From positions 1-47,348 of IMG/VR virus record IMGVR_UViG_3300043171_000157: a DNA stretch of 47,348 bases; one strand, written 5' to 3'. The translations under genes were made by a program, and so were the position numbers. The notes below the pieces were generated by a model. It was not told where the DNA came from and ran no database searches. It saw only the letters and a program-made list of their open reading frames with translations. Origin of the DNA: a virus (lineage: Duplodnaviria > Caudoviricetes). Of this stretch, positions 4,689 to 20,508 are shown one piece after another; the first letter of the stretch is position 1, and each line of letters begins with the position of its first letter.

Positions 4689-4702
4689 TTAAAGAAGAAA
4701 AC

Positions 4703-5023
4703 TGACGGTGTAGGGTTACAGTAGACCTACTAACTTGTATGAGTCAAGCACTGCCGGCAATTAAAGCTCCTTACGCACTGGAAAGCCTAAAAAGCGGATC
4801 TGGATTTAAGCGCAAAACAGTCTATGGCTGGGGAGTGGGTCAAATTCGTAGACCGTAAGAATATACCTCCGATGCAACAGATGGGGGCTGGCAGAAGAGG
4901 CTTAAGGGTGGAGCAGTCGTCGATACAGGCCATCCGATATCTGATTAGCGATAGCTGTCTCCTGTAGGCTCTCACCTCCTCCTACCGACCCCTACAGGGG
5001 CTCTATCTGCTTTATTACCGTTA
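4703..5023 (+). ncRNA. Unclassified ~320-nt structured RNA
   Basis: GC-rich segment between tRNAs with no plus-strand ORF. The 5' and 3' ends pair, and at least six nested helices containing G.U pairs can be drawn. Confidence 0.75.
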
Positions 5024-5042
5024 CGATTTAAGCATGATACTC

Positions 5043-5114: not shown

Positions 5115-5685
5115 CTTAATCAATAAAAAGGCCTAAGCTATCATTAGGAGCTTAAATTAAGGGAATATATGAATCACATTACAGCGTAACCAGAGTGTGA
5201 CTCTCGGAAGCATCTTCCAAGAATAATATATATCGAAAGCCAAAACAATGAAGAAGGGCAAATGATTATCCTAGAACTCAATCATAGGGTAGGGAATAAC
5301 TCCGTCCATCCAATTCTGAACAGCTCGAACTATCCATTATAGCTAATATAAGCCATATAAGTAACTGCTATGCGGTAGTAAAGTTTTAAGGGGTTACTCT
5401 AGGTATAGCTGGATACCCACGTTCACACCCATCCAACCCCACCCATCATAACCATGTGGGCTTGAGGGGTTCCGCATAACTCATTATAATTCATGTACTT
5501 AGTATGCATTCAGTGTATACATGTTTAGGTATTTGAGTAGTGTATACATAGTTTATACATTATATGCGGGGATTATGAGTGTACTAAGTTAAGTGCGGGG
5601 GTATATATCTAGACCTATTTGCTCTTTTTGATTCATTATAGCCTATCTTGAGCTTTAGTAGGTGCTTGACATTATTTAGAACACA

Positions 5686-5782: not shown

Positions 5783-5827
5783 AAAGTAAAGAAATGATTA
5801 GGTTATCATGTTTAAAGAGTATAGTTT
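5783..5827 (+). promoter_or_regulatory. Early promoter, TAGG-type -35
   Basis: TAGGTT-N17-TAGTTT; a 20-bp block is shared with 7119-7138. Confidence 0.6.
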
Positions 5828-5863
5828 AAATAAGAGGGCGAACAACAACAAAGAGGTGACCCC

Positions 5864-6091
5864 ATGAAAGAGATAAATGAAAAGAAGGAAGCGAATCAGG
5901 TACAGCTTGCTAATCTTATCTACTCACTCTCACTTAATGTGAACGACTTAGATAGATACAGTAACACCGACTTCCTAGTACACGATACACAAGCAACAAT
6001 AAATCTACTAACTAGGAAGCTCAAAAGAGCACAAGGTAAAGTAGTTGAAGAAAGAATAAAAGCTCAATTTGTTAAACAAACACACGGTTGA
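5864..6091 (+). CDS. Early hypothetical protein
   Basis: GAGGTGA SD, 75 aa. Confidence 0.75.
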   Translation: MKEINEKKEANQVQLANLIYSLSLNVNDLDRYSNTDFLVHDTQATINLLTRKLKRAQGKVVEERIKAQFVKQTHG

Positions 6092-6102
6092 GTAATTTGA
6101 GG

Positions 6103-6216
6103 CACTTGTGTCTCTTTAGGTATTATAGGTAAATACATTTGGTAAGTAATCGACGGACGAAACTCTAAATGTAACCCTAGGGCAAAAGCCTATAGTATCT
6201 AAAAAAGCACAAGGTG
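6103..6216 (+). repeat. Conserved-stem hairpin element 1
   Basis: CTTGTGTCTCTTTAGGTATTATAGG...CCTATAGTATCTAAAAAAGCACAAG. Confidence 0.85.
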
Positions 6217-6653
6217 GACAAGATGAAACACTTCTACAATAGACAACAAGTAGCTATAATAGTTAAAATAGCTAAACTATGCGGAATAGACCCCGATGAT
6301 GTTGCTATGGTATGGGTTGAATCTGGTTATGCTAAAGTGTGGCACGATAAATATACAAGGGACTAAATAAACTAAAGAGGTGAGTATGTTAGAGGAATTT
6401 GAGTATAATGAGCTTATGACTGAGCTTGATGATTTTGAGGAGAATGAGGAATTAGAGTGTGAAACAGATAACGCTATTAACTCAAAATGCACAAAGAGGG
6501 CAATAATCGAAAATGAATAGTAGATATTATGAGCTTAAGGCTCTCTTAGAGCGTGAAAGAAGACGACTACACCCAAATGTCAAGATTATTGATGATTATG
6601 AATACAAGATCAAAATCATGCTTGCAAGGGGTGTATGGTTATAATTGAGACTA

Positions 6654-6753
6654 TTGAGTCTCTTTAGGTATTATAGTTAAGTCTCCTTAGTGGGAAGCTG
6701 ACAAGGCGTGTAATTAAGTGAGAGCACTGGCTATAGTATCTAAAAAGAATCAA
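6654..6753 (+). repeat. Conserved-stem hairpin element 2
   Basis: TTGAGTCTCTTTAGGTATTATAGTT...GGCTATAGTATCTAAAAAGAATCAA, 25-position stem. Confidence 0.85.
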
Positions 6754-6782
6754 CTATGTCAAAAAGCTAAAGGAGGTATAGT

Positions 6783-6983
6783 ATGTTAAAGAAGTTTAGC
6801 GGTGAATATGCTGTACAATGTATAGTTACTGGCATACCGTTATGTTCTGAATATAGCTATAGTGACGCTTTTAGAGGTTGTAGGGTGTTAAATATTCATA
6901 ACGCCAAACACGGCCACAAAGATAGATACTATGTTGTTAAATACGTCTCTATTGAAGCTATAGAGACTAGAGCAATGGTATGA
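6783..6983 (+). CDS. Early hypothetical protein
   Basis: AGGAGGT SD. Confidence 0.7.
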   Translation: MLKKFSGEYAVQCIVTGIPLCSEYSYSDAFRGCRVLNIHNAKHGHKDRYYVVKYVSIEAIETRAMV

Positions 6984-7118
6984 GTGTTATAATTTAATGG
7001 CTCAAAATGGGCTATATGAATGGTCTAATCATAGGGTTATTACTAATGTAACACTAGAACAAGCGGAAGCTATAGCCGATAAGTACAGGGCTATTCTTGG
7101 GTTACCATTAAATACTAA

Positions 7119-7163
7119 AAAGTAAAGAAATGATTAGGAATAACAACAAAAAGAATATACATT
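7119..7163 (+). promoter_or_regulatory. Early promoter, TAGG-type -35
   Basis: TAGGAA-N17-TACATT. Confidence 0.6.
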
Positions 7164-7309
7164 ATAAATAAGGGTAAGCAACAGGGCAAGCCCAAACAAC
7201 TAAAAGGTATAATATGTTTGAATTAATTGAAACAATCACTATAGCAATAACATTAAGTGCTATTTGTGGTGGTATCATCAAATTATTATTGCTTTTATGT
7301 AAATAGTAT

Positions 7310-7338
7310 TAGGAATTACCTTATAATTAATGTAGATT
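7310..7338 (+). promoter_or_regulatory. Early promoter, TAGG-type -35
   Basis: TAGGAA-N17-TAGATT. Confidence 0.55.
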
Positions 7339-7447
7339 ATATATAAGGCAGTAAGGAACAACAAACAGTGCGCACGAGCTTCAAAGATGTTTGTTAGGCT
7401 AGGTTAGAATCCTAGAGCTAAAATGCACTAAAACAGGTAGGTACATC

Positions 7448-7822
7448 ATGGCACAAGAAAAAGTGAGCCGTGTTGACTTGTCAAAGGCGATAGCAATATC
7501 AAAGCAGACTCTAAGTGACGATACCATAAGCGATAGCTTACGATCTCACATTAAAGAGCATTTGAGAAAGCTAATAATTGCTCAAGATAAAGCAACAGGC
7601 AAAACGGTAGAAATGGATCTAAAACCACAAAACCGTCCAAGAACTAAAATAACTAATGGCGCTTGCAAAGTTAAAAAGAAGCGAGTAATGGGTACAGGCT
7701 CTAAAAAAGCTCAAGTAACCCAAACTATAACCATTAAGAGAAAGAAAGGTAAAAAAGCTGAACTTCCTACACATACTAAAGAAGGTATGCGAATAGTAAG
7801 GGCGACTTTTAGCAAGAAATAA
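7448..7822 (+). CDS. Basic early hypothetical protein
   Basis: 124 aa, AGGTAGGT upstream. Confidence 0.75.
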   Translation: MAQEKVSRVDLSKAIAISKQTLSDDTISDSLRSHIKEHLRKLIIAQDKATGKTVEMDLKPQNRPRTKITNGACKVKKKRVMGTGSKKAQVTQTITIKRKKGKKAELPTHTKEGMRIVRATFSKK

Positions 7823-7827
7823 CTAGT

Positions 7828-7961
7828 ATAGTGTGTAGATAGTTTAATAATCCAATAGGATAGAACACCTTATAAGTCTAGCTGAACGGTTCATGCAAGA
7901 ACTTATTAAATAGATACGGGAAATGTTGGTAACTGCAATAAAATCCAACACTACACACTAT
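7828..7961 (+). ncRNA. Intergenic structured RNA element
   Basis: Perfect 11-bp closing stem ATAGTGTGTAG/CTACACACTAT with internal helices. Confidence 0.55.
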
Positions 7962-8106
7962 TTAGAGTTTGACAATAACGTCAATAATAAGGAGATATAT
8001 TATGGAATTATTAGCAGGAGTAATAATTGTAGCGATAGTAGTAATGATAATTTTCTAAGTATTATGGGTTTATGGTATTCCTAGTGGTGATGCGCTGAAA
8101 ACCACC

Positions 8107-8269
8107 TTTGAGTCTCTTTAGGCTCTATATGTAAGCAGTGAGGTGGCAATAAGAATAGTTAACGGCTAAGGGTGACTACATACATTAAGACTCTGTATTG
8201 TAACACGACTAGACAAGAACTGTGTGAGCCTAAGTACCGTATTGCATATAGCGTCTAAAAAGACCCAAA
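8107..8269 (+). repeat. Conserved-stem hairpin element 3
   Basis: TTTGAGTCTCTTTAGGCTCTATATGTAA...TTGCATATAGCGTCTAAAAAGACCCAAA, 28-position stem. Confidence 0.85.
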
Positions 8270-8291
8270 CAACTAAACAGGTAGGTAGCAA

Positions 8292-8540
8292 ATGGCTAGT
8301 ATTATAGCTCAAAAAGTTAAACACCAACAGGCCGGTAATATATTTGATAATATATGTGCCATACAGACACGGATTGAAATAGCTAAACAATCACAAGTAA
8401 CTCAAAGAGAACGTGATAATATGGAGTCACTAGTAGGCGAGCTAGGTGTTGAACTTGAAAGGTCACGGAATTGTAAAAGCAGAAAACAAGTAAGAAGAAT
8501 GTTTGCAAATCGCTTTGATTGTACAGCACAAAAGTTATAA
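8292..8540 (+). CDS. Early hypothetical protein
   Basis: 82 aa, AGGTAGGT upstream. Confidence 0.75.
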   Translation: MASIIAQKVKHQQAGNIFDNICAIQTRIEIAKQSQVTQRERDNMESLVGELGVELERSRNCKSRKQVRRMFANRFDCTAQKL

Positions 8541-8929
8541 CCCAAAAGGGAGTGTGATACATGAATCAAATCAGAGCACCAAACTAGTATAAAATATACT
8601 ACCCCAATATAAAAAAACGGGGCCAAACTGAGACTTATAACCGCAAGATAAGTATAATTGGGCTTATGATAGTATTCACCTACAGCAGGGAGTACTATCA
8701 CAAGACCAATAACCAAGGGCGTATTATGATGATTGTTAATTGCGGGTCTTTTGTTCGTTTTTATACAAACAAGGGTGAGTATTTCACACTATTGGCCCAT
8801 AAGCCAGAACCGCTAAAACCGTTCAACTTATATAATGCTAAAACATTAAGTCTTATTAGTGGGTGCTTAAATGTGCATAATGCTAAAAGGTTAATAGAAA
8901 TATACGAATTAAATAAATAAGGGCGTATC

Positions 8930-9112
8930 ATGGCTAAATGTTCAATATGTAATAATTGTAGCAATAGGTGCATCTATAGCAATGGAAAAACCATTAGTAT
9001 AGACCTAAGAAACACAATTAGAGCTTTAGAGAATTTTGAGGATTGTCCACCAAATGAGAGAGAATTTTACAAAGGGGCGTCATTTGGTAGTAGAGGAGGG
9101 CCGGACTCGTGA
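8930..9112 (+). CDS. Cys-rich mini-protein
   Basis: CSICNNCSNRC motif; GTGA coupling to the next gene. Confidence 0.6.
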   Translation: MAKCSICNNCSNRCIYSNGKTISIDLRNTIRALENFEDCPPNEREFYKGASFGSRGGPDS

Positions 9113-9333
9113 GCTTAGATAGTATTCAGACAATACAGAACAAATTATATGGCAGAACTAAATCTGCTCACAGTGCTCTTTGTATTGATTTGAGAGAGGA
9201 TTATGTTGTTAATGTATTAAAAGCGTCTATAAGCATATATAGGGGTCAAATGGGCTATAAGTATGCCGAAAGATGGATTTTAATAGGATTGGGTGTTGAT
9301 AGCGAAAAACCGCTCCCACACCCAATGGAATAA
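9109..9333 (+). CDS. Hypothetical protein
   Basis: GGAGG SD, GTG start. Confidence 0.6.
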   Translation: MSLDSIQTIQNKLYGRTKSAHSALCIDLREDYVVNVLKASISIYRGQMGYKYAERWILIGLGVDSEKPLPHPME

Positions 9334-9349
9334 ATAAATAAAATAGTAC

Positions 9350-9458
9350 TTGACTTTTGAGTATTAATAACTTAACTTAAATAAGACTTAATAAATAAGT
9401 TAAACGGTAAATTTTGATTAATTAATCGCTTGACTTTCAAACAAAAATAATGTAGTTT
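9350..9458 (+). promoter_or_regulatory. Two tandem sigma70-type promoters
   Basis: TTGACT-N17-TAACTT (9350) and TTGACT-N17-TAGTTT (9430). Confidence 0.7.
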
Positions 9459-9501
9459 AAATAAGAGACAACATTAAAACGATAAACAGGTAGGTAAAAA
9501 A

Positions 9502-9747
9502 ATGAAAGGTGAATTTATAGTAGATGGCAAAAAGCTAAAAGAGCAAAAGCCGGCATTAACACTTAGAGAAATGAAAAAGTGTGAATTTTTTCTCGGAACT
9601 TACAGCAAAAATCAACACTTAATCTATAAAGATAAAAACGGTTTTTGTACGTCATTAACAAACGGACAACAACTTGGAAATGACAATAGTGGCGTTACCA
9701 ATGTTGTCAATCACAAGAAAGTGACTATTGATATTGTAACAAAGTAG
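9502..9747 (+). CDS. Hypothetical protein
   Basis: 81 aa, AGGTAGGT upstream. Confidence 0.7.
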   Translation: MKGEFIVDGKKLKEQKPALTLREMKKCEFFLGTYSKNQHLIYKDKNGFCTSLTNGQQLGNDNSGVTNVVNHKKVTIDIVTK

Positions 9748-9936
9748 GTGGGCGTGAAAACAAACTTACCAACAGTATTTAAGTTAATGAATTTAGATAC
9801 TGTTGAAAAAATAAATAAAAGACTGTTGGGTAATTTTGAAGATGTAGAACGATACCAAGATGGCATGCTTAAAAAATTGCAAGAAAACAATTGCATTATG
9901 GCTCTAGTTAAAGAGCACAATGTAGAATTAAAATAG
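9748..9936 (+). CDS. Hypothetical protein
   Basis: ORF packed between neighbours. Confidence 0.55.
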   Translation: MGVKTNLPTVFKLMNLDTVEKINKRLLGNFEDVERYQDGMLKKLQENNCIMALVKEHNVELK

Positions 9937-10076
9937 GTAGGTAGGTATGAAAGATAAGAGAATGAAGATTAGAATAGTTAGTAAAGGCTCTAAGAAGAAA
10001 GCCTCAAAAATTAAAAAGAATCAATCATCAATTGAGGCATACAGAGAGTGGCAAATACACAACAAAGTAGTATGCA

Positions 10077-10226
10077 TTGGATGGTGATAAGAGCTTGATA
10101 GCGGCCACTTGTCCGAACTGTGGATATGTATACTATGATGATCTTTATGAGGAGTGCCCGAGCTGTGGTGGCCTCAATGAATCAGATGTAGAGCTATTAG
10201 GTGATGATTGTGAAGAACACTGGTGA
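10077..10226 (+). CDS. Acidic zinc-ribbon/rubredoxin-like mini-protein
   Basis: Manual translation ...TCPNCGYVYYDDLYEECPSCGG...; start uncertain (TTG). Confidence 0.6.
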   Translation: MDGDKSLIAATCPNCGYVYYDDLYEECPSCGGLNESDVELLGDDCEEHW

Positions 10227-10232
10227 TTGCGA

Positions 10233-10350
10233 CAGAGGATTGATGGTGAAAGCCATGCATTAATTGGGCTCAAGACCTGACCTCTGACCAAGTTTCGGTG
10301 CGGGCAACGTAGTTTGTTTAAGGGATTTTCTGAGCTACGCCCGTTGCCGA
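10233..10350 (+). ncRNA. GC-rich structured RNA (junction plus long hairpin)
   Basis: CAGAGG/CCTCTG encloses ATGGT-GAAA-GCCAT; then TCGGTGCGGG..CGTAGTT pairs with AGCTACG CCCGTTGCCGA. Confidence 0.6.
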
Positions 10351-10443
10351 CATTTAGTTTCTTTAGGTATCGCCGGTTACAGCGATTGTACGCTAGTTAT
10401 AAAGAAAGGTACGTCGACCATCGGTATCTAAAAAAATTAAATG
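10351..10443 (+). repeat. Conserved-stem hairpin element 4
   Basis: CATTTAGTTTCTTTAGGTATCG...CGGTATCTAAAAAAATTAAATG, 22-position stem. Confidence 0.85.
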
Positions 10444-10466
10444 GAATAAAAAAAGGAGTAAATAAA

Positions 10467-10733
10467 ATGAGTGGATTAATAATATTTTTAATATACATAG
10501 CAGTGGTGCTAATTGGAACTATAATACTTGGCATGATTTGGGATAAATTAAGGCATGATCAGGACGAACTTGCTGTTGTCATCCTTGTCTTATGGCCGTT
10601 TGCATTAACCTTAATTCCACCATGTTGGCTTATATATTTCATATTCAAATCTCTCTTTACATTTGGAGAGTTGTTGGGTGAGAAAATATCAACGGCATTT
10701 AAAAAGGTTGTGAGAAGCGCTAGTAAATACTAA
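10467..10733 (+). CDS. Two-TM membrane protein
   Basis: AAGGAG SD before ATG 10467; two hydrophobic segments with LWP motif. Confidence 0.75.
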   Translation: MSGLIIFLIYIAVVLIGTIILGMIWDKLRHDQDELAVVILVLWPFALTLIPPCWLIYFIFKSLFTFGELLGEKISTAFKKVVRSASKY

Positions 10734-10745
10734 AATGGAGACAAT

Positions 10746-11048
10746 ATGTTAAGGTCAATAAGAAAACCAACAAAGAAACCCAATGAAGAGATATTGGAGA
10801 TTACACTTAAAGACGTTGAGGAAGAAATTAGGTGCGGATATATGTATGGCAGTAGAGACAATAAGGGTAATGTTGTTTTATATTTGCCAGATTATAGGTC
10901 TAGCACAGGGGTAATAAATATCGTGTATATTGGCAAGAAAAGCGACGGGGGTCTTTCAATTGAATCGGTTGGTGAATTACTTAAAAACGACTATAAGGAT
11001 AAAATACTTAAAAAGATAGGCTCTTATAGAGATATTGGGCTATTATGA
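10746..11048 (+). CDS. Early paralog family member A
   Basis: EITLKDVEEEIRCGYMY...KILKKIGSYRDI. Confidence 0.7.
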   Translation: MLRSIRKPTKKPNEEILEITLKDVEEEIRCGYMYGSRDNKGNVVLYLPDYRSSTGVINIVYIGKKSDGGLSIESVGELLKNDYKDKILKKIGSYRDIGLL

Positions 11049-11317
11049 GCAAGGAATTTAAAGAGGCTATACAACCCTATAAAGACGCTATAATGAGAGC
11101 GCAAAAGATGAAAGTAATTTGTAAGAAACAGATAGCAATAGAGAATGATATAATAGTGAGGGCACAAGATGAAATATCAAAAATTGCGATTGCGGAAAAT
11201 AGAAAAGATGCGTGACATTGAAATAACTAAAAATAAAATGTATGTTAAAGAAACTATAATATCTACATTAATAATGCTAACCTACTTTGGTGGATTGGTA
11301 TGGGTGGGGTTTAATAT

Positions 11318-11575
11318 ATGAACGTAGAATTTTATGTAATATATGTAGAACATAGTGACCCAAAGTGGGCACATGTTGATGTTGATGGATATTTAAAAGG
11401 CTCTGGATGGAGTAAGAAAGAAGTTAAAGACATTGAGAAGGCTAATAGATACCCAACATTTAAAGGTGCTGATATGGCTTCCGATAAGCTAAAATGGAAT
11501 TATTCATTAAGAAGCCCGAAACCTAAAATAGAAACAAGAAAGTATGTTGGTACGGTTGAAAGGGTGGAATTATGA
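11318..11575 (+). CDS. Hypothetical protein
   Basis: 85-aa ORF, ATGA-coupled to the next gene. Confidence 0.65.
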   Translation: MNVEFYVIYVEHSDPKWAHVDVDGYLKGSGWSKKEVKDIEKANRYPTFKGADMASDKLKWNYSLRSPKPKIETRKYVGTVERVEL

Positions 11576-11766
11576 ATGTACGGAATCTAATAGAGCGACT
11601 TATGTTAGTAGAAAACAAAGAGTCTAAAATATTTGTTTATGATGAAAATATTGCCGACGAAGGGAAGGTAAATCCTAGAAACCACATAAGTTTTGTTGAT
11701 GATTTAAGCAACAAAGAGACTCAATTTGGACTTGTTGATGTTGTTATAAATTTTAGAGGTGGATGA
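11572..11766 (+). CDS. Hypothetical phage protein
   Basis: MNVRNLIERL N-terminus of the common phage MTVxELIxxL type. Confidence 0.7.
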   Translation: MNVRNLIERLMLVENKESKIFVYDENIADEGKVNPRNHISFVDDLSNKETQFGLVDVVINFRGG

Positions 11767-11861
11767 TGATATATTTATTATTAATGTTACCATGTGTAAC
11801 CGGATTTATAATTGGTGCAATGGTAGCGGTAGTGGAGATAGTATTAACAAGGTAGGAACGT

Positions 11862-12152
11862 ATGAGAAAAGTTATAGGTCACGCCAATAGGGTTGAAACC
11901 TTTGAAGCGACAAGTGAAGAAGTAATAGAAGGTATACTTAATGGTGATTTATACTGCTATAAAACCATCTGCGGTTGTTGGCTATATGTTAAAATGTATG
12001 TGGGCGGAGGCAACAAGACTGAGATAAAATGCCTTAGTGTTCCAAGTTTTTCAATATATTACAACTCCGATTTTTCAATAAGAGAGACAATGCAGAATAG
12101 AATTAATGAGGGTACAATATATAAGATAGACTCCATTAAAGAGCTATTATAA
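11862..12152 (+). CDS. Early paralog family member B
   Basis: EATSEEVIEGILNGDLY...NEGTIYKIDSIKELL. Confidence 0.7.
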   Translation: MRKVIGHANRVETFEATSEEVIEGILNGDLYCYKTICGCWLYVKMYVGGGNKTEIKCLSVPSFSIYYNSDFSIRETMQNRINEGTIYKIDSIKELL

Positions 12153-12164
12153 AAGTAGGTAGGT

Positions 12165-12473
12165 ATGCAAGTATTAAAGAGAAAGTTTAAGACCTGTTTT
12201 AGTGAGAAAAAAGAAACACTTAAACAAGTAAAAGAAAACATATTTAAATATCCTAGATCACTGTATGTTCATTCTTGGAATAGTAGGTTTGTATATATAG
12301 CTAATGATGACGATAAGACAATAAGTTGCATAAACATAGACGCCCCATTAATGTATAAACAGTCTCAAGTATTAAGAGAGCTTGAGAAAGATTTTAATGA
12401 GGATAAACTAATAAAAGTTTCCTCACTTAAAGAAGCGTTTAGAGTGCCAAAACATTTACATTATAACAGGTAG
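12165..12473 (+). CDS. Early paralog family member C
   Basis: KETLKQVKENIFK..SLY...NEDKLIKVSSLKEAF. Confidence 0.7.
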   Translation: MQVLKRKFKTCFSEKKETLKQVKENIFKYPRSLYVHSWNSRFVYIANDDDKTISCINIDAPLMYKQSQVLRELEKDFNEDKLIKVSSLKEAFRVPKHLHYNR

Positions 12474-12479
12474 GTAGAA

Positions 12480-12755
12480 ATGAATCAAGAAGAAATGGAA
12501 AAGAAAATTATATCCATGCAAGTAGTATTGGATGGACAAACAAATTTACTAAAGACAATTACTAAGTTAATTGCGGGTAATGACACAAATATGACTAAGG
12601 TGGCAAACTCTATGTTGCTATCAGCTAAAGCCATAAGTGCTTTACAGAAATTAGTTAAACACCAAAGTGAAAAGATAGAAGTACAGAGTACAATCCTATC
12701 AATTCATGGGCTTACAGACATACTGGGAGGTGATGGAGGTGGTGAAAGCACTTAG
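12480..12755 (+). CDS. Coiled-coil hypothetical protein
   Basis: Heptad-like pattern; AGGTAGGT upstream. Confidence 0.7.
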   Translation: MNQEEMEKKIISMQVVLDGQTNLLKTITKLIAGNDTNMTKVANSMLLSAKAISALQKLVKHQSEKIEVQSTILSIHGLTDILGGDGGGEST

Positions 12756-12956
12756 GTACACTAGTGTTCTATGCTCTAAGGTAAGGGCTAAGAGGGCACA
12801 AAGAGTACAATCAGATAAGACTATTAATATGATGAAACCGGCGTTGAATCACCAATTCCATCTATTAAGATTCTTACAGGAGCACCCTATGTATAGGGCT
12901 GATTGTGTAATGTTGCATAATAATCATTACTCTCCAAAAATTAATTAATTATTCGC

Positions 12957-12985
12957 TTGACTTTTCAAGTAAAATAATTTATATT
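12957..12985 (+). promoter_or_regulatory. Sigma70-type promoter
   Basis: TTGACT-N17-TATATT. Confidence 0.8.
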
Positions 12986-13183
12986 ATATAAGAGGCTTTA
13001 AACATTAAATGTTTGGCTTTAAAAAATTAAACGGTAGGTAGTTATGGCGGTTCAAGAAAATAAACCGGATCTAAAATTTAGATTAACGCTGTTAAGAATA
13101 TTTATTGAGACTCTTGAGTCAAAAGGTAAAATAACAGCAGAAGAGAGAAGTTACATGGTTAGTCTCTTTGATAAGGAGGGATA

Positions 13184-13807
13184 ATGTTTAAGGTAGGTGA
13201 TGAGATTATAGTAGTTGACGAAAATGATAATAGTGGAACAACTGGATATAAGGGTGTTATTATCAATGAAGAAAACAATAATTATTGGACAGTAAGGTTT
13301 GATGAGTGGTATAATGGCCATGGCGATGGCTATAGAAATTGGAATATTAGTGGTGAAGAGTTAATGCTCTTGAAAGATTATGTACCGCCAAAGGTAAGTA
13401 AAAGACCTAAGCCAAAGATAAGGTTTAAGACTGAGATGGATATGGCTCAAGAGTATGGTGAGCATTGGCGTAAAAAAAACTACTGGCAAAGTAGCATGGA
13501 TCGCTTACACGGTAAGTACTTAAACGGCGAACAATATGATGAGGCATATAGGCTAATGATTAAGGGCAAGCCCTTTGCTAGGGGTTGGTTTTTCCGTAGA
13601 AGTGAATATGGTGGAGAAGAAAACAGAAGCCATGATATAGCATATACCTCACTAGAGTTTGTGTATGATGCGAAAAGAGAGGAGCCACCGAAACACACTT
13701 GCTCATACTGTTTTAAAGGAATAACAAAACGGCAACACATAAAGAATAAGGGATTATGCAATGGTCACGTATGGTCACTATCTAGTAAGGTTTTAACCAA
13801 GGTATAG
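13184..13807 (+). CDS. SH3-like N-terminal domain plus C-terminal Zn finger
   Basis: MFKVGDEI...GYKGVI...VRFD; PKHTCSYCFK...GLC. Confidence 0.7.
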   Translation: MFKVGDEIIVVDENDNSGTTGYKGVIINEENNNYWTVRFDEWYNGHGDGYRNWNISGEELMLLKDYVPPKVSKRPKPKIRFKTEMDMAQEYGEHWRKKNYWQSSMDRLHGKYLNGEQYDEAYRLMIKGKPFARGWFFRRSEYGGEENRSHDIAYTSLEFVYDAKREEPPKHTCSYCFKGITKRQHIKNKGLCNGHVWSLSSKVLTKV

Positions 13808-13943
13808 TATGAAGTGTGTAATATGGATAAACGAACAAACATTACAATTAGCTCTGTGTGTATGGAGCTTAATTTGAGGCTCTTAGAGTATCTTAACGGG
13901 TATTCTAAAAACCCCAAATCACACAAAAATAGGAGGTCGTGAT

Positions 13944-14291
13944 ATGAAGGCAAAACTGGTAACAAGACCAAAACCTGCATTGGAAGTAGTTGCAGAAACA
14001 ATGGCAGATGTTGAGGCAAACATCAAAAATGGTATTGCATATGCAACCACTCGAAAGAGCGGAAGCCTATCAATCTATTCCTTTAACAGAAGCTCGGGTC
14101 AAATCGTTGCTCTCTATCAGGATTCCGGTACTGCCGATCCTAAAGAGACAGGAAAGATCAAGGCTAAGGGTACTCACAAGAACAAAGTGAAGACCATTAA
14201 TGTTGAAGAGTCTCTTCAAGAGGCCTATGATCAAGAGCGTTTGATCAAGCTAGACAATTTAACAGAACACTTTGTGTTCCCAACTACTTAG
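13944..14291 (+). CDS. Early paralog family member D
   Basis: AETMADVEANIKNGIAY...DQERLIKLDNLTEHF; AGGAGGT SD. Confidence 0.75.
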   Translation: MKAKLVTRPKPALEVVAETMADVEANIKNGIAYATTRKSGSLSIYSFNRSSGQIVALYQDSGTADPKETGKIKAKGTHKNKVKTINVEESLQEAYDQERLIKLDNLTEHFVFPTT

Positions 14292-14345
14292 GAGTAAGTA
14301 GAAATACTAATCAGTATTGAGATTAGCACCCTCAATACTTATACT

Positions 14346-14418
14346 GTTCCTGTCATCTAACTGGCTAGGATATCAGGTTTTCAACCTGACAATTAAGGTT
14401 CGAATCCTTACGGGAATA
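14346..14418 (+). tRNA. tRNA-Glu(TTC)
   Basis: GTTCCTG/CGGGAAT acceptor, TCAGG-TTTTCAA-CCTGA, GGTTCGAATCC. Confidence 0.92.
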
Positions 14419-14453
14419 TTTAATATGTATAACAATAAAATAGGTAGGTGTGA

Positions 14454-16166
14454 ATGTATCGTTTTGGAATATTAAATTTTGATGGATGTTCATCAAACGA
14501 GAGGAAAGAAAAAATAGTAGAAATGCTAATATTTATGACCACAAAAAGCGTGGCTGTTAACGGTAGCGAGACTATTAATTTGGTTGAAAATAAGAGTCAC
14601 TTTTTCGAGCATGAAACTACTTACTTGGCGTTTCAGGGTGGATCGAGCTACTGTGAATTGAGATCAACAAACAGAACAGTCACAAACAAAAAAGAGATAC
14701 AATATTTGTTGGGGGGAAATTACTATAGTTCCGATGTTAGGGAAAGTAAAATCAGCACAATAAGTACAATGGATGAACTAAAAGAATTTATTGATCAATT
14801 TGAAAAACTCAATGGAAAGGGAAGGCGGTTAAATAGAAGTCGAAGATATGAGGAATTTGAGAACCAAATATCGTCAGATATGAGAACCGGTAGAAATAGG
14901 CTTGAAACCGATTTTGACTTCATAGATTTTGATGCCGAAGATTCAAAAATGATTTCGGTTGTTAATAAGTCGAGGTACGATAAAGTTGGCGAGGATTTTT
15001 ATCTTCCATCAATGAGAAAGTCGGTTGCCGTAAAGATGAAACCGGGAAAGTTCTTTAAAAAATTATATCCAGATGCCACTGCAAAATGGTGTGAGGATTT
15101 TGCCACACAAGTGAGGCTAATAAACAGGGATGAAAAAGATTTTAAACTGGAAGTTAGAAAAGATGTTAGATTTTGTTACGATGAAAAGAATTATGGAGCT
15201 AATAAAGGACAGCTAGGAAGCTCCTGTATGAAGCACTCCAATAAAAATCATTTCATGGAATTTTATGAGGGTAACAATGTTAAGGTGTTAGCTTTAATGG
15301 CCTTTGGTAAGGTGTTTGGGAGGGCATTGCTATGGGATGATGTACACTTTAAAGACCTTAAAAAAGATGGGAAATATATGGATAGGGTGTTTATGAGCAA
15401 CTCTATGGACACTGCATTATTTAATAAGTGGGCTATTGATAATGGATATTATCACAGGGATACATCTGGAAGAACAAGTGGACTGCACAATCCAAAGGGT
15501 GATCCTGTAAAATCAGCTATTATATTTTCAAACAAAGGAAACTTAAATACTGAATACGAGGTTTTTCCATACCTAGATACATTTGGGAGTATGTCACTTG
15601 ACAAGAGTGAGTTATCAAGTGTGACTCTTAAATATCATTGGAGCATGAGATCAACGGGGGGTACGATAAATCACAATGGTAGATGGAGTAAGTATTATAA
15701 AGAAGCTCTTGAACCTGAAAAAAGTGTTAGGTCGGAAGAACTTAATGATAATATCAAGAAGGAGCTTGCTGTTGTCATAGAGGATGAAGAGTATGAAGAT
15801 ACATTTTTTATGCCGGATGATCATGGTGACATTGTTACCATTGGTGATAAAAATTATTTGAAAACCTTTGCCAGTGTTCTTTATAGTAAACATGAGGAAG
15901 AACACTTCCTTAGAAATGACAGGAACTTTGTGTTCTCGAAAAGTAAAGATGATTGGATTCCTAGAAATGTATCAATATTTTCTAAGCATCACAATGATTG
16001 GATGTTATTTGAAGATGCGGTATTTGTCCACTGCACAGACTCTTATTATAATAAGAGCGAGGTTGGTGTGAGTATATTTGAACATGAGGAAACTTATGTT
16101 ACAAAAGATGAAATGAAAAAGATTGAATGGGCAAAAGAGTTTCAAATAAAAATGGAGTTAGCATGA
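14454..16166 (+). CDS. 570-aa phage protein of unknown function (SCM / GRALLW / MDRV / PYLDT motifs)
   Basis: Motif set recognisable from uncharacterised phage proteins, C-terminal short repeats, ATGA-coupled to the peptidase. Confidence 0.7.
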   Translation: MYRFGILNFDGCSSNERKEKIVEMLIFMTTKSVAVNGSETINLVENKSHFFEHETTYLAFQGGSSYCELRSTNRTVTNKKEIQYLLGGNYYSSDVRESKISTISTMDELKEFIDQFEKLNGKGRRLNRSRRYEEFENQISSDMRTGRNRLETDFDFIDFDAEDSKMISVVNKSRYDKVGEDFYLPSMRKSVAVKMKPGKFFKKLYPDATAKWCEDFATQVRLINRDEKDFKLEVRKDVRFCYDEKNYGANKGQLGSSCMKHSNKNHFMEFYEGNNVKVLALMAFGKVFGRALLWDDVHFKDLKKDGKYMDRVFMSNSMDTALFNKWAIDNGYYHRDTSGRTSGLHNPKGDPVKSAIIFSNKGNLNTEYEVFPYLDTFGSMSLDKSELSSVTLKYHWSMRSTGGTINHNGRWSKYYKEALEPEKSVRSEELNDNIKKELAVVIEDEEYEDTFFMPDDHGDIVTIGDKNYLKTFASVLYSKHEEEHFLRNDRNFVFSKSKDDWIPRNVSIFSKHHNDWMLFEDAVFVHCTDSYYNKSEVGVSIFEHEETYVTKDEMKKIEWAKEFQIKMELA

Positions 16167-17644
16167 GTGTAGGCGATATAAAGAAACATAAAAAAATACC
16201 GGAGAGGTTGCCAAAGATACCTGAGAAGGTTGGAGAGGAATTTGTAGATGTTCTAAGAGTTCAAAGCGTATCAAGTAATGAGTACTTTATGATGAAGTAT
16301 ATTCTTGATAGACTCTCTGGAAAAGGCTACTCTATTGAGATAGATGATAATGCAAATATTATTGTAACAAAAGGTAAGGCTAAAGTATTCCCTTGTGTTG
16401 TATCTCATAAAGACACTGTTCACAGTCTTGTTAAAGATTATGACGTGTACCAATGTGAAGATGAAAAAGATAAGCACGAAATATTATTTGCCATGCAAGG
16501 AATTGGCGACGATGCAATATCATCCGGTGTTGGAGGTGATGATAAATGCGGAATTTACTCATGCTTCTATATGCTTGAGAGGGCTCAAAATATTAAAGTT
16601 ATATTCTTCTCACAAGAAGAAATAGGTTGTAAAGGGTCACACGGTATTGACTTGAAACACTTTGAAAATGTTGGGTATATATTACAGCTTGACAGGTGGG
16701 GTCGTGGTGACTTCATAGATAAAGTTTACAACACTAAAACTGTTAGTCCAGAATTTAGTAGCACAATATCTGACAAGATGATTGAGTATGGTTATACTTC
16801 AACTACCGGTCTTATAACCGACTCGATCACCTTGTTCAAAAGAGATGTTGGAATAAGTTGTGTGAATATAAGTTGTGGGTACTACTCACATCACAGTAGC
16901 CTAGAGGAAATTGATTGTAATCAATTCTATAACAGTCTTATGTTCTTAGAGGACATAGTTGACAAGCTAGGAGAGAAGAAGTATGAGAAGGAAAATAAGC
17001 CCGAGCCATATAAAGCTCCGGCATATCAGAGCAAGTATTTTACAGGTAAATATTATACTCCACCGAGGAAGAAATACTTAATGGATTGTAAGCAAACCGA
17101 TGAGACGAAATGTTGGAAGTGTAAGGACTTTTACAATTGCGCTGATTACGATAAGAAATTTCCGAAAGATATAAAAAAGAATAGGTGTACCAACTTAGGC
17201 CATGTTAATTGCACGACCTGTAAAAATTGGGCATCCTGTAATACAACATATAAAGAGAAAGCCTCACAGGAGGCGGAGAGGGTAAAGGATATAACGAAAG
17301 ATACCCCTATTACTGAGATGGATAAAATAATACAAATGAATGAGTATTATAGTGATATGGAGGATGCACTAAAAGATTTTGGTGGTGATGATAGTGATGA
17401 TAATATTGATGATAGCTACGGTAGACCTAGTTGGTTGCCGGAAGATGTTGCGCTATCACTACACTGTGAGAATGTTATGTATATGGTTGAAAGGTATGGA
17501 TTTAGTAGGACTAACCTAGAGTACACATACAATAACATAGCACAGGATATTCTAGACCAAATGGAGAGTGAGTTCACATATATGTATGGCTATGGAATTA
17601 AGTCAATGGAGGCTGAAATAGAGAGGGCTTTATGTGGGGTGTAA
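16163..17644 (+). CDS. Zn-dependent peptidase (M28/M20/M42 fold) with Cys-rich C-terminal extension
   Basis: SHxDTVH, GGDDKCG, QEEIG, QLDR and GYYSHHS metal-ligand motifs. Confidence 0.88.
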   Translation: MSVGDIKKHKKIPERLPKIPEKVGEEFVDVLRVQSVSSNEYFMMKYILDRLSGKGYSIEIDDNANIIVTKGKAKVFPCVVSHKDTVHSLVKDYDVYQCEDEKDKHEILFAMQGIGDDAISSGVGGDDKCGIYSCFYMLERAQNIKVIFFSQEEIGCKGSHGIDLKHFENVGYILQLDRWGRGDFIDKVYNTKTVSPEFSSTISDKMIEYGYTSTTGLITDSITLFKRDVGISCVNISCGYYSHHSSLEEIDCNQFYNSLMFLEDIVDKLGEKKYEKENKPEPYKAPAYQSKYFTGKYYTPPRKKYLMDCKQTDETKCWKCKDFYNCADYDKKFPKDIKKNRCTNLGHVNCTTCKNWASCNTTYKEKASQEAERVKDITKDTPITEMDKIIQMNEYYSDMEDALKDFGGDDSDDNIDDSYGRPSWLPEDVALSLHCENVMYMVERYGFSRTNLEYTYNNIAQDILDQMESEFTYMYGYGIKSMEAEIERALCGV

Positions 17645-17981
17645 TATGGTAATAAAATTTTTTGAAGGACAAAGGGTTGTTGCAAAAAGAAACTATGGGG
17701 TATATGCTTGTAAGGATATAGAGGGTATTGTTTTGGATAACCCATATAGATGGGATAGAAGGATTTTTGTTAGGTTTGATACGCCGGTAAGAGGTGATCG
17801 TGTTAGAGAGACTTATATATTTAAATCATATTTAAAGCCCATAAAAAGGAATGCTAGAGCTAAAGCACCAAAACACATATGCTCATATTGTTTTAAAGAA
17901 ATACCAAGATTGACAAGTGTTAAAAGTGGCCTATGTACACCATGCAAAACTTACTTTAACAAAAAGGCGGTTAAGAAATGA
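17634..17981 (+). CDS. SH3-like plus Zn-finger protein, paralog of 13184-13807
   Basis: FFEGQRV...EGIV...VRFD; PKHICSYCFK...GLCTPC. Confidence 0.7.
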   Translation: MGCNMVIKFFEGQRVVAKRNYGVYACKDIEGIVLDNPYRWDRRIFVRFDTPVRGDRVRETYIFKSYLKPIKRNARAKAPKHICSYCFKEIPRLTSVKSGLCTPCKTYFNKKAVKK

Positions 17982-18298
17982 ATGTTGATGAATTTTCAAA
18001 AGATATACTAAACGCAATTTGTGAAGAAAGAGGAATTGATATACCTAAAACAGATGCTACAAATATAGCGGGCCTCATAGCTAAAGATGAAGAGTATGAT
18101 TTTATGAGCCTAGTGTATGAAGGTATTATGATAGATGGAAAAATAACTTATATAGTTCCTGACAAATATTTGATGGTGATACCTATTAATAAAGAACGTG
18201 GCGAGGTGGCTATGGATTTGATGGAAGAATTTGAGTGTGAGCACGTTGATTATTTTGATGGGTTCGGTGAGTATAAATTATTTTACATATGTTGGTAG
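17978..18298 (+). CDS. Acidic hypothetical protein
   Basis: ATGA-coupled ORF. Confidence 0.7.
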   Translation: MNVDEFSKDILNAICEERGIDIPKTDATNIAGLIAKDEEYDFMSLVYEGIMIDGKITYIVPDKYLMVIPINKERGEVAMDLMEEFECEHVDYFDGFGEYKLFYICW

Positions 18299-18301
18299 GT
18301 T

Positions 18302-18736
18302 ATGAAAGGTGACATGAGAGCGATATATCTTGACTTATTCGATGAGAATAAAAAGAAGATAAGAGAATCTACAAAAGAGTTTACGGTAAAAGCAGGAATG
18401 TTTGATGAATTTTTTGACACAAATGCAGAATTTATGGCATCGGCACTAATGAGCGCTAGGAGGAATCGAGCCGGCAGTATGTTTTTGGTAGAGGATGAGC
18501 CTTTACCTCCTGAACCACCTAGAGCCCCCGCTCACATTGGAACGGGCATGGATATTATGATGGATATAAGTTCTTATGAGAGACAATTACAGTCTTACGA
18601 GAGGCATATTGCTAGACAATTGGAAGAACAGAATAGACAAATGAATGCAATTAATAGGCACGATAGAGGTTATACTAGTGGAGTTAGCCATGGTAACCAA
18701 TCTAGGTGGATTACAAATATTGGGAGGCGATTTTGA
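18302..18736 (+). CDS. Hypothetical protein
   Basis: 144 aa, GGTAGGT upstream. Confidence 0.7.
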   Translation: MKGDMRAIYLDLFDENKKKIRESTKEFTVKAGMFDEFFDTNAEFMASALMSARRNRAGSMFLVEDEPLPPEPPRAPAHIGTGMDIMMDISSYERQLQSYERHIARQLEEQNRQMNAINRHDRGYTSGVSHGNQSRWITNIGRRF

Positions 18737-19047
18737 AGGGTGATGCGAGAGAATTAGAATTATTTATGCCCGAAAAGAAGAAGAGAGATCGGAGACTATA
18801 TAAGGCGGTACATGGTGCAAATTTAGCAATGAATGGCGTTCCTAGTGGTATTGAGTATGAGGAACACTATAGAAACCTAGAGGATGTTATTAATGAATTT
18901 GGGTTTGGTGACAACACAGAAGAGGATGATATTTGGCGTGAACTAGATGCTATACGGGCTTATTTCAGAAATAATAATTCATATGGAACTACTAGTTACA
19001 GATATGATATAATGTTGATATTAGATGAAAAAAGATTACCTTTCTAA
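18733..19047 (+). CDS. Hypothetical protein with N-terminus similar to the preceding gene
   Basis: TTG start after GGAGG, TTGA overlap; KGDARELELF. Confidence 0.65.
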   Translation: MKGDARELELFMPEKKKRDRRLYKAVHGANLAMNGVPSGIEYEEHYRNLEDVINEFGFGDNTEEDDIWRELDAIRAYFRNNNSYGTTSYRYDIMLILDEKRLPF

Positions 19048-19090
19048 TATATAAACTTTCGCAATAATGTAAAATTGATGAAAAAAGTTC

Positions 19091-19119
19091 TTGACAAATC
19101 GGGAAAAATAAGCTATATT
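19091..19119 (+). promoter_or_regulatory. Sigma70-type promoter of the replication operon
   Basis: TTGACA-N17-TATATT. Confidence 0.85.
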
Positions 19120-19181
19120 ATAACAGAGGTTTTTTAGAAACCTCATTATGATAATGAATTACTATTATAAAAGGGGAGACT

Positions 19182-19379
19182 ATGTCACCATTTGAAAGAG
19201 TTAGAAAATTAGCAAACTTAGCCAAGATAGATATTAAAAAAGGATCTGTTAAGATTAAATACAATTATTCAAACGATAAAATTGTTGTCGATCTTGAAAA
19301 GGCAGGAGCGTTTTCAGTTCCAAGTAAAGATGTAAGAAATCTAAGAGACGCACTTAATGTATTACTCAAGGAGGATTAA
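19182..19379 (+). CDS. Hypothetical protein
   Basis: GGGGAG SD, first gene after the promoter. Confidence 0.7.
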   Translation: MSPFERVRKLANLAKIDIKKGSVKIKYNYSNDKIVVDLEKAGAFSVPSKDVRNLRDALNVLLKED

Positions 19380-19540
19380 TGTCAAAGAACTCAGATAAAA
19401 AACCTAGTTATATAAGTCCTGAGTTACGAATAGATCTTATGAAGTATCTTATTGAGGCAGATAAAAGGGGTGACTTAGATTTAACAGAGAAAAGAAGAAG
19501 AGAAATAGCGTTGTATAGTGATATTTAATTAGGAGGAAGA

Positions 19541-19945
19541 ATGATGTTTGAGTTAATGATGTTAATATTGTTCGGTGGAATGATTTGTGGCGCACTACTA
19601 ATGCTAGTATTTCAGAAAGACTTTTGGAGACTGGTGTCTGTGTACTATAAAACATTCACCAAGGAGAATAGGCGACTCAACGAGAAGAAAATGTATTGGC
19701 AGTCCTTATGTATAGAATCTGATTGGTTTAAAGATAAGAACTTAGTACAGGATAAGCTAATTAAAATAAGCGCTAAAGCCTCTAAGTTGGCCGATAAGGA
19801 TATGGCCTTACAGATACGTGATGAAGAGATTGAGAACAACTATAAGAAGTATTCGGTGCAACTTGATGCACAGATAAAGAAACTAGAGAGTATAAAGGAG
19901 TCTATAGATATAGTTAAAGAATCGGGAGTGGATAATGAAAAATAA
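19541..19945 (+). CDS. N-terminal TM plus coiled-coil protein
   Basis: AGGAGG SD; hydrophobic N-terminus. Confidence 0.75.
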   Translation: MMFELMMLILFGGMICGALLMLVFQKDFWRLVSVYYKTFTKENRRLNEKKMYWQSLCIESDWFKDKNLVQDKLIKISAKASKLADKDMALQIRDEEIENNYKKYSVQLDAQIKKLESIKESIDIVKESGVDNEK

Positions 19946-20210
19946 AAAGACAATAATGGAGATATTTGAGTTTTTCCCAAACATAAACTGGATAACCAAA
20001 GATAGTGGTGTAGATGGATCTATTGCCTTACATGTAAATAAACCGCTAAGGTCGGCGTGTATGGAATACCTTGATGGTTCTTATCGTAGCGGATATGTGT
20101 CAGATGAAGAAAGTTGCATTATTTTAGACTCTGCTCATTTACAGACAGATTGGGGTACATTGAGAACATGGAAGCAAAGGTGTATTGGTAGAAAGGGAGT
20201 AAAGGTATGA
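19935..20210 (+). CDS. Hypothetical phage protein
   Basis: NWITKDSG...KP pattern. Confidence 0.65.
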   Translation: MKNKKTIMEIFEFFPNINWITKDSGVDGSIALHVNKPLRSACMEYLDGSYRSGYVSDEESCIILDSAHLQTDWGTLRTWKQRCIGRKGVKV

Positions 20211-20341
20211 GTAAGGATGATAATTTATTGATACGGTGTCCTGTGTGTGGCAGAGAGAACTATGCACCTAATGTAGCTACTGGTATATGTACATGGTGTA
20301 ATTACAAAAAAGGTGAAGGCGTGGGGAAGAAAAAAGGGTAA
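20207..20341 (+). CDS. 44-aa zinc-ribbon mini-protein
   Basis: RCPVCGRENYAPNVATGICTWCNY. Confidence 0.7.
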   Translation: MSKDDNLLIRCPVCGRENYAPNVATGICTWCNYKKGEGVGKKKG

Positions 20342-20344
20342 ATA

Positions 20345-20506
20345 ATGGATTATCAAAAAATAATAGATGAGGATATAAGGGATTATAAATGTGATACCCT
20401 TAGCTGTAAGACTATGGTACATTTTCCTAATTCAGTATGCCCTAACTGTTCTGAGAAAGAGAGACTTGATAACACAGAAGACTGGCAACATGAAAGGAAG
20501 TGTTAA
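20345..20506 (+). CDS. 53-aa Cys mini-protein
   Basis: KCDTLSC...VCPNC; fills the gap before the helicase. Confidence 0.6.
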   Translation: MDYQKIIDEDIRDYKCDTLSCKTMVHFPNSVCPNCSEKERLDNTEDWQHERKC

Positions 20507-20508
20507 TT

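Follow-up and report, generated by a model that had tools for sequence, protein, structure and literature searches.

The early RNAs of phages T7 (five signals, e.g. R1.1) and SP82 possess repeated double-helical signals between early genes, each based on a two-turn helix in a polycistronic transcript and requiring a host enzyme. The T7 signal R1.1 folds compactly within 49 nt and is cut on a single strand. Long-range stems that close around a cargo are found in pre-rRNA, in the scRNA of Bacillus subtilis and in DicF of the Qin prophage, where the ends are set by RNase III and the cargo is conserved and functional. In B. subtilis, the long-range stems cut by RNase III can enclose as much as 505 nt (PMC11780869). 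Recognition by RNase III comprises two helical turns, with an 11-bp half on each side of the cut (PMC1540722), and a WSSW core has been reported for both E. coli RNase III (PMC6212723) and Mini-III (PMC5141509).

The window, i.e. the whole analysed stretch of 47,348 nt, derives from a 47-kb circular contig of an uncultured marine-sediment phage. Four related inverted repeats occur in it, here termed clamps (Table 1); they covary, extend over 25-28 positions and share the invariant centre AGGY/RUCU. Like the T7 and SP82 signals they are repeated, here predicted, double helices between early genes, and like pre-rRNA, scRNA and DicF they would form a long-range stem around intervening sequence. 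Unlike R1.1, they possess a near-continuous helix with just one conserved mismatch, C.A, enclosing 39-111 nt of unrelated sequence; unlike the cargo of pre-rRNA, scRNA and DicF, the inserts match nothing. In the single DNA run that holds the stretch, perhaps its source, the elements occur without variants. A fifth copy is absent from the window, also in a covariance-model scan.

Table 1. Clamps, predicted cuts and neighbouring features (positions of the window)
Feature	Position	Strand	Details
Copy 1	6106..6212	+	arms 6106-6130 / 6188-6212; insert 6131-6187, 57 nt
Copy 1, predicted cuts	6120^6121 and 6199^6200	+	
Copy 2	6654..6753	+	arms 6654-6678 / 6729-6753; insert 6679-6728, 50 nt
Copy 2, predicted cuts	6668^6669 and 6740^6741	+	
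Copy 3	8107..8269	+	arms 8108-8132 / 8244-8268; insert 8133-8243, 111 nt
Copy 3, predicted cuts	8122^8123 and 8255^8256	+	centre AGGC/GUCU
Copy 4	10351..10443	+	arms 10351-10377 / 10417-10443; insert 10378-10416, 39 nt
Copy 4, predicted cuts	10367^10368 and 10428^10429	+	
Promoter-like repeat ATTAGG-N19-TANNTT	5797..5827	+	upstream of copies 1 and 2; putative promoter
TTGACT-type promoter-like repeat (families D1, D4)	9429..9467	+	upstream of copy 4; putative function
Small ORF downstream of copy 1	6223..6366	+	start 23 nt past predicted cut
Small ORF downstream of copy 2	6783..6983	+	start 42 nt past predicted cut
Small ORF downstream of copy 3	8292..8540	+	start 36 nt past predicted cut
Small hydrophobic ORF downstream of copy 4	10467..10733	+	start 38 nt past predicted cut

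The clamps are located between small early genes, 3' of promoter-like repeats and 5' of ribosome-binding sites. Positions and motifs of the four elements given in the initial annotation are correct, as is its remark that each ends just before a ribosome-binding site: these sites lie 0-25 nt 3' of the arms, and the outer arm of copy 1 touches its own. All elements had been called intergenic, which requires amendment for copy 4, situated inside a frame (10314-10733) continuous with the downstream gene, whose real start is likely at 10467. The CsrA-type motif GGA is present in two of the four inserts, in one of them within a hairpin loop. Two further instances of ATTAGG-N19-TANNTT, at 7133 and 7308, precede copy 3; the repeat is found three times on the + strand and never on the - strand. 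PHROG and Pfam searches assign no family to the ORFs following copies 2 and 3; the ORF behind copy 1 has no PHROG match and one sub-threshold Pfam match, and that behind copy 4 has weak matches to PHROGs of unknown function.

The left-arm motif TCTTTAGG has six exact matches, four of them in the clamps (6113, 6661, 8115 and 10360) and the remaining two on the - strand; RTCTAAAAA has five, four of them in the clamps (6197, 6738, 8253 and 10426). Single arm motifs scarcely exceed chance (5 found, 2.8 expected), but the paired stems are not attributable to chance. When all 22-bp long-range stems of the + strand are ranked by score, the clamps take the first four places with 36-40, followed by a stem with 35; the best long-range stems of five block-shuffled genomes score 31-35. 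Copies 1-4 fold with z-scores of -4.6, -5.1, -2.0 and -2.95, respectively. In alignment A2, 93% of 88 cells are paired, compared with 30-52% in slid controls, and 7 of 22 pairs are altered on both sides (0 of 500 shuffles), which bears out the compensatory changes noted earlier, including that from U-A to C-G in copy 3; the invariant C.A mismatch and G.U pair recur in all copies. On the + strand, wobble pairs comprise 13 G.U versus 7 C.A, a balance that modestly favours + strand RNA. In IMG/VR, loci that match the same core by chance have 11 or fewer of 16 flanking positions paired, versus 14-15 in the clamps. Between copies 1 and 2 the arms are identical at 23/25 and 20/25 positions and the inserts are unrelated.

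The centre AGGY/RUCU is placed mid-helix in every copy, with 13-14 outer and 10-12 inner positions. A two-turn helix, as recognised by classical RNase III, is present in 4/4 copies, the outer half of copy 2 being missing from a prediction with 250 nt of context that retains its inner half. The WSSW position is occupied by AGGU in three copies and by AGGC in copy 3, and G.U takes the place of G-C as the second central pair. With respect to the Mini-III core (ACCU/AGGU-type or WSSW), copies 1, 2 and 4 possess AGGU/AUCU; copy 3 (AGGC/GUCU) misfits. When scored against the RNase III consensus, one and the same register comes first in each of the four copies (summed score 50, runner-up 41); a register one base upstream, suggested by the T7 ends, was rejected with a score of 41. 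The consensus is itself weak, and the fit to it is not significant against 20,000 joint column shuffles (p=0.165); since the four copies are homologous, they do not represent four independent tests of this fit.

In the best register, the outer proximal box consists entirely of A-U/U-A pairs and the C.A mismatch follows just beyond it. Position J' is G in all copies regardless of its partner, in line with a reported preference (PMC6212723); an invariant G lies nine positions out. The second proximal-box position is A-U/U-A in the outer half (D') of all four copies and in none of the inner halves (D), where it is U.G in three copies and C-G in copy 3. A purine 2-amino group at position D keeps E. 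coli RNase III from binding, and one good box set can suffice for the enzyme (PMC1540722). The invariant inner G thus occupies an inhibiting position, which makes a clean double cut uncertain, above all in copy 3. This copy additionally possesses a C-G adjoining the cut, with a mismatch beside it. Helix length, symmetry, the AGGY/RUCU centre, the outer A-U box and the invariant G lend support to the initial proposal of RNase III stems, but the consensus fit does not significantly exceed that of column shuffles.

On balance, the clamps are probably processing signals for a host nuclease of the RNase III family, which would punctuate early mRNA by cutting them at AGG^Y / RUC^U, classical RNase III being somewhat more likely as the cutter than Mini-III. 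An RNase III domain has no match in the phage genome, the same search being positive in 8 of 14 control genomes. A polycistronic early RNA would be made by the host polymerase and each clamp would fold; an RNase III dimer would bind mainly via the well-matched outer half-site and cleave either a single strand or both, leaving a 2-nt stagger. The message would then be split into separately decaying pieces, with new 5' ends 23-42 nt before the next start codon, in the manner of T7 and SP82 early RNA. Cutting of both strands would release hairpins of 79, 72, 133 and 61 nt, and after cutting of one strand the insert would stay in place and protect the RNA end as a terminal structure. Selection appears to act on the arms; the inserts are most probably cargo of the loop that can be exchanged. 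Release of the ribosome-binding sites by clamp cutting is not predicted: their computed accessibility is essentially the same before and after the cut in 3/4 copies. The left arm is similar to boxA, but the G of this antitermination signal is missing from it and it is fully paired.

Alternatively, the clamps might be standard processing stalks, of the kind that flanks rRNA or scRNA, whose role is the excision of four distinct small RNAs with a function as decoy, in anti-defence or in antisense; this appears rather unlikely. This reading shares the cutting step with mRNA punctuation and differs in what selection keeps. A loop of 39-111 nt is unneeded for a plain cut site, the inserts have a G+C content of 0.37-0.46 compared with 0.21-0.32 in six other gene-free early stretches (mostly promoter regions), and precedents for excised RNAs exist in scRNA and in DicF, which is RNase III-processed from a prophage polycistron. 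Inserts 1 and 2 possess a similar fold of stem, internal loop and small hairpin (shape similarity 0.10), slightly better than that of shuffles (fractions 0.09 and 0.03), but inserts 3 and 4 do not exceed shuffles in structure (0.35 and 0.54). Furthermore, the four elements match no Rfam 15 family at gathering score or at E up to 10, the phage genome contains neither an exact match nor a complement to the inserts that would be out of the ordinary, and with a poorly fitting inner half-site a cut of both strands is doubtful. That the inserts are unrelated, as first described, is confirmed in all six pairs, which share no sequence and are no more alike than shuffles. With neither an Rfam family nor shared sequence nor a phage target, the dispersed small-RNA delivery system of the initial annotation finds no direct support. 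Its boldest extension, in which a lytic podovirus reuses the host 23S rRNA maturation signal (a fusobacterial-type Mini-III site AGGU/AUCU) four times within a standard RNA clamp and excises four different small RNAs from its earliest transcripts as a modular host-processed arsenal for takeover or counter-defence, the first phage use of Mini-III, is distinctly improbable.

Uncut stems, serving as sites for phage or host proteins (or for non-cutting RNase III) or as exonuclease roadblocks and tuning early-gene stability or translation, are unlikely as well, between these two readings in probability. A protein could recognise a surface made up of the C.A mismatch, the G.U pair and the inner G, all of them invariant; established antideterminants are present in the inner half and RNase III binding without cutting is documented, but the WSSW-centred symmetry and the invariant G at J' are as expected of a cutting site. 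The genome contains an ORF (236-463) for a small zinc-ribbon protein weakly resembling the translational regulator Com of Mu; this match is, however, below the Pfam cut-off and nothing connects the ORF to the stems. It is very improbable that the repeats act as DNA, i.e. as recombination joints, attC-like sites or miniature-transposon remnants shuffling early genes or inserts. The similar arms around unrelated inserts in copies 1 and 2 and the Sak-like annealing and exonuclease VIII-like proteins encoded by the phage are compatible with it, but pair changes on both sides and the bias in wobble pairs are in keeping with RNA. Sites of the attC type start with RYYYAAC, end with GTTRRRY and act with an integrase; this arrangement is absent from both strands of 5800-10600 and tyrosine integrase (PF00589) has no match in the genome, so that an integron attC site was rejected. 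A retron msr-msd was rejected likewise, as reverse transcriptase (PF00078) has no match. Incidental recombination between arms is possible as a side effect.

The predicted Mini-III site of Fusobacterium nucleatum, AGGU/AUCU with a U-G wobble, is identical to the phage centre in 3/4 copies, and efficient pre-rRNA cleavage by Mini-III needs ribosomal protein L3 (PMC5141509). The pre-23S rRNA ends of Ilyobacter (TTTAGGT/ACCTAAA) agree with the clamps at 13 of 14 core positions, those of F. vincentii and F. polymorphum (AATAGGT/ATCTAAA) at 12. This likeness is confined to 7 A+T-rich bp around a core of wide occurrence; the score is 9 in Cetobacterium, likewise of the Fusobacteriaceae, and reaches 11 in unrelated taxa. 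The three Fusobacteriaceae may be taken as a weak lead to a fusobacterial host. Capsid, endolysin, Atlas and tRNA searches indicate no host. Fusobacterium phage Fnu1 contains 19 matches to a looser two-arm pattern, versus one for the reversed control, none of them an extended stem by eye.

Among annotated phages, blastn yields only matches with E of 1 or worse and no sequence homologue. An exact-pattern scan of IMG/VR returns one locus, within a coding gene and without clamp stem; a scan over 25/64 parts returns 119 loci and two more pattern scans 8 and 19, none forming a stem. The promoter 20-mer has no locus in IMG/VR. The best covariance-model match (L105, 25 bits) was rejected, lying inside an open reading frame and lacking the clamp fold. 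Terminase relatives comprise 22 loci (32-45% identical) in the metagenome (44/64 parts) and genome collections; the closest relative, P0002 (59%, 38.7-kb contig), lies outside the stem scans. Repeated long stems provide no copy in 12 of the 22 loci, nor does the covariance-model search envisaged initially in 21 of them and the whole 40-kb contig G002:C3.

If the clamps are only cut sites, they extend early-RNA punctuation of the T7/SP82 type to an unrelated phage group, in an unusual cargo-enclosing and one-sided design, and their four natural versions would allow the specificities of RNase III and Mini-III to be compared. The core likeness to rRNA processing sites suggests a route to host inference for uncultured phages, which a single case cannot validate. 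Should the inserts accumulate and be active, phages would possess, in a constant clamp with variable cargo, a simple route to gain and swap small RNAs, and the clamp would be a searchable signature for such RNAs.

Four inverted repeats, here called clamps, lie on the plus strand at the positions proposed in the initial annotation, each enclosing a different insert between its two stem strands, or arms (see table). Isolated 8- and 9-mer motifs of the arms occur near chance frequency, and the paired arms are the top four long-range stems of the plus strand (scores of 36-40; the next stem reaches 35, and 5 shuffles gave maxima of 31-35). Every copy aligns in register over 25-28 positions with the invariant block UCUUUAGG/UCUAAAAA, and the C.A mismatch and G.U pair described as invariant are present once each, in register, in all four. 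The 22 pairs counted comprise nine invariant, three with a one-sided change, seven with a two-sided change and three departing by mismatch only. The proposed covariation of the stem holds: 7/22 pairs are two-sided and 93% of cells paired, which 0 of 500 shuffles equalled, a control that is generous with four related sequences. Two points count against the described reading: the outer helix half of copy 2 is absent from the prediction in wider context, and copy 4, although each element was described as intergenic, lies inside an open frame that runs on into the following gene. The four clamps are real inverted repeats, paired and placed as described, and the window contains no fifth copy.

Features of the window, with insert and register values for the clamps
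Feature	Position	Strand	Insert (nt)	Fragment predicted from double cut (nt)	z-score, insert folded alone	Shuffles folding equally well within clamp	Top register score (of 22)
Clamp copy 1	6106-6212	+	57	79	-1.4	9%	12
Clamp copy 2	6654-6753	+	50	72	-1.7	3%	13
Clamp copy 3	8107-8269	+	111	133	+1.35	35%	12
Clamp copy 4	10351-10443	+	39	61	-0.3	54%	13
Zinc-ribbon ORF	236-463	-
Large terminase	852-2366
Stretch between tRNA-His and tRNA-Trp	4689-5042	+
CACCTCCT within this stretch	4973
Nested inverted repeats	5395-5625
ATTAGG-N19-TANNTT	5797, 7133, 7308	+
TTGACT class	4423, 9429, 12957, 22190, 24680
GGTAGGT (11 on +, 2 on -)	7436-20941	+
Fifth long-range stem	7823-7965	+
Short hydrophobic ORF	8002-8084	+
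Two-domain hairpin region	10227-10349	+

The window ends overlap by 127 nt, so the contig is circular, despite a CheckV completeness estimate of 52%; the single sequencing run containing it is a marine-sediment metagenome. Besides the terminase, the window encodes a portal, a major capsid protein, a DnaB-like helicase, a Sak-like annealing protein, an exonuclease VIII-like protein, six tRNAs and, by a weak match, a P22 gp7-like ejection protein. The 75-aa zinc-ribbon ORF bears a weak likeness to the Mu Com translational regulator. Terminase relatives (L124 in G001, L125 in G002:C3) occur on contigs in MAGs labelled Woesearchaeota and Pseudomonadales, labels not to be taken as hosts because G002:C3 has the appearance of a phage contig of 40 kb.

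The clamps are located where a plus-strand block of small unknown genes begins, 3' of repeated promoter-like motifs, and by inference this block is the early region. One promoter-like class is ATTAGG-N19-TANNTT, two copies of which are preceded by an identical 20-mer; the TTGACT class is distinct from it. GGTAGGT stands directly 5' of start codons where inspected and is a candidate unusual ribosome-binding motif or regulator site. The gene-free nested repeats, close to the strand switch and immediately 5' of the early promoters, may mark an origin or an end of the genome.

In the core AGGY/RUCU, the two G residues of AGGY form the centre of the helix, with 13-14 positions outside (insert-distal) and 10-12 inside. 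RNase III substrates typically span two helical turns, and a recognition half covers 11 bp, made up of a proximal box of 4 bp and a distal box (PMC1540722); E. coli in vivo sites favour WSSW spanning the cuts, with A-U/U-A at positions D and D' and G at J/J' (PMC6212723); the WSSW preference is common to Mini-III enzymes (PMC5141509); and B. subtilis Mini-III cleaves ACC^U and, at a lower rate, AUC^U (PMC4357697). All registers were scored by these RNase III and Mini-III preferences together with a weak consensus given in PMC5141509. AGG^Y/RUC^U is the top register in all four copies (sum 50, next register 41); because joint column shuffling gives a sum of 50 in 16.5% of 20,000 trials, this fit is suggestive only. 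The outer half-site fits well, with a proximal box entirely of A-U/U-A and the C.A mismatch immediately beyond it; J' is G in 4/4 copies, its partner being C, A, C and U in turn, and K' is A in 3/4. The full-length Aquifex pre-16S stem tolerates an A.C pair close to its cleavage site (PMC3074117). The inner half-site fits poorly, D being U.G or C-G with an invariant G, and G at D prevents binding by E. coli RNase III. Since one well-matched set of boxes can be enough to direct cleavage (both points from PMC1540722), a cut at AGG^Y/RUC^U is plausible; whether both strands would be cut cleanly is uncertain, copies 1, 2 and 4 being the least doubtful. No RNase III domain is encoded in the genome, so the cutting enzyme would be the host's.

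The predicted Mini-III site of F. nucleatum pre-23S rRNA is AGGU/AUCU with a U-G wobble (PMC5141509). In a small panel of pre-23S ends from 16 taxa (plasmid-collection records), the phage core matches Ilyobacter polytropus, from marine mud, at 13/14 positions, two Fusobacterium species at 12, Amphritea and Mycoplasmopsis at 11 in different registers, and the remaining 11 taxa at 10 or fewer (Cetobacterium at 9), the match being short and A+T-rich. A fusobacterial host is a lead from this likeness; tRNA and protein searches yielded no independent host evidence. The genome of Fusobacterium phage Fnu1 contains TTAGGY-N40-70-RYCTAA 19 times against once for the reversed control, and none resembles an extended stem.

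That the clamps excise functional RNAs, for which DicF is a precedent (bioRxiv 2023.04.14.536235), appears rather unlikely. The inserts are unrelated to one another, as had been noted (6/6 pairs are no more alike than shuffles), and match no Rfam family; their exact matches and complements elsewhere in the phage genome are nothing out of the ordinary. Inserts 1 and 2 have a general shape in common (10% of shuffles are equally close), and all four exceed in G+C six other gene-free stretches, mostly promoter-holding. Copies 1 and 2 have arms identical at 43/50 positions and unlike inserts, so the arms are apparently what selection maintains. No opening of the downstream ribosome-binding site is predicted upon cleavage, apart from a partial one in copy 3. 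Stems that stay uncut and bind a protein or stabilise the RNA are less probable still. Repeats acting as DNA joints we regard as very improbable. On the plus strand G.U occurs 13 times vs 7 times for C.A, and the plus strand folds better than the minus strand in all three copies tested.

Other folded stretches lie nearby. A domain of three hairpins and 110 nt between genes is closed by the fifth long-range stem, whose arms differ from those of the clamps (z -4.1); the insert by itself is not unusually stable. The hydrophobic ORF 5' of copy 3 is apparently frameshifted into an overlapping frame. The gene-free hairpin region adjoining copy 4 upstream (G+C 0.50) has a GAAA-loop stem by eye, a z-score of -0.85 and no Rfam match. 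The 354-nt stretch between the tRNAs (G+C 0.48) contains CACCTCCT, resembling the 16S anti-Shine-Dalgarno end; it matched no Rfam family, was not called as tmRNA, folds less well than its shuffles and is possibly a pseudoknotted RNA.

No clamp homologues were found in partial IMG/VR pattern scans, distant terminase relatives or annotated phages. The literature, within limited coverage of subscription work, yielded no report of stems of this kind that recur and enclose a cargo, nor any of Mini-III acting on phage mRNA; passages of a phage small-RNA review (PMC12197685) have no mention of such a system. Precedents are the five RNase III signals of the T7 early precursor RNA (PMC3867540, PMC8708148) and the RNase III sites of SP82 early mRNA (PMC4838370), and B. 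subtilis RNase III cleaves stems that enclose hundreds of bases (PMC11780869). We infer that the clamps are transcribed, fold in the cell and are cleaved for a like purpose: somewhat probably, and as the likeliest of the readings, they are processing signals for a host enzyme of the RNase III family. Its cuts would split the polycistronic early RNA at the clamps and leave new 5' ends 23-42 nt 5' of the next gene.
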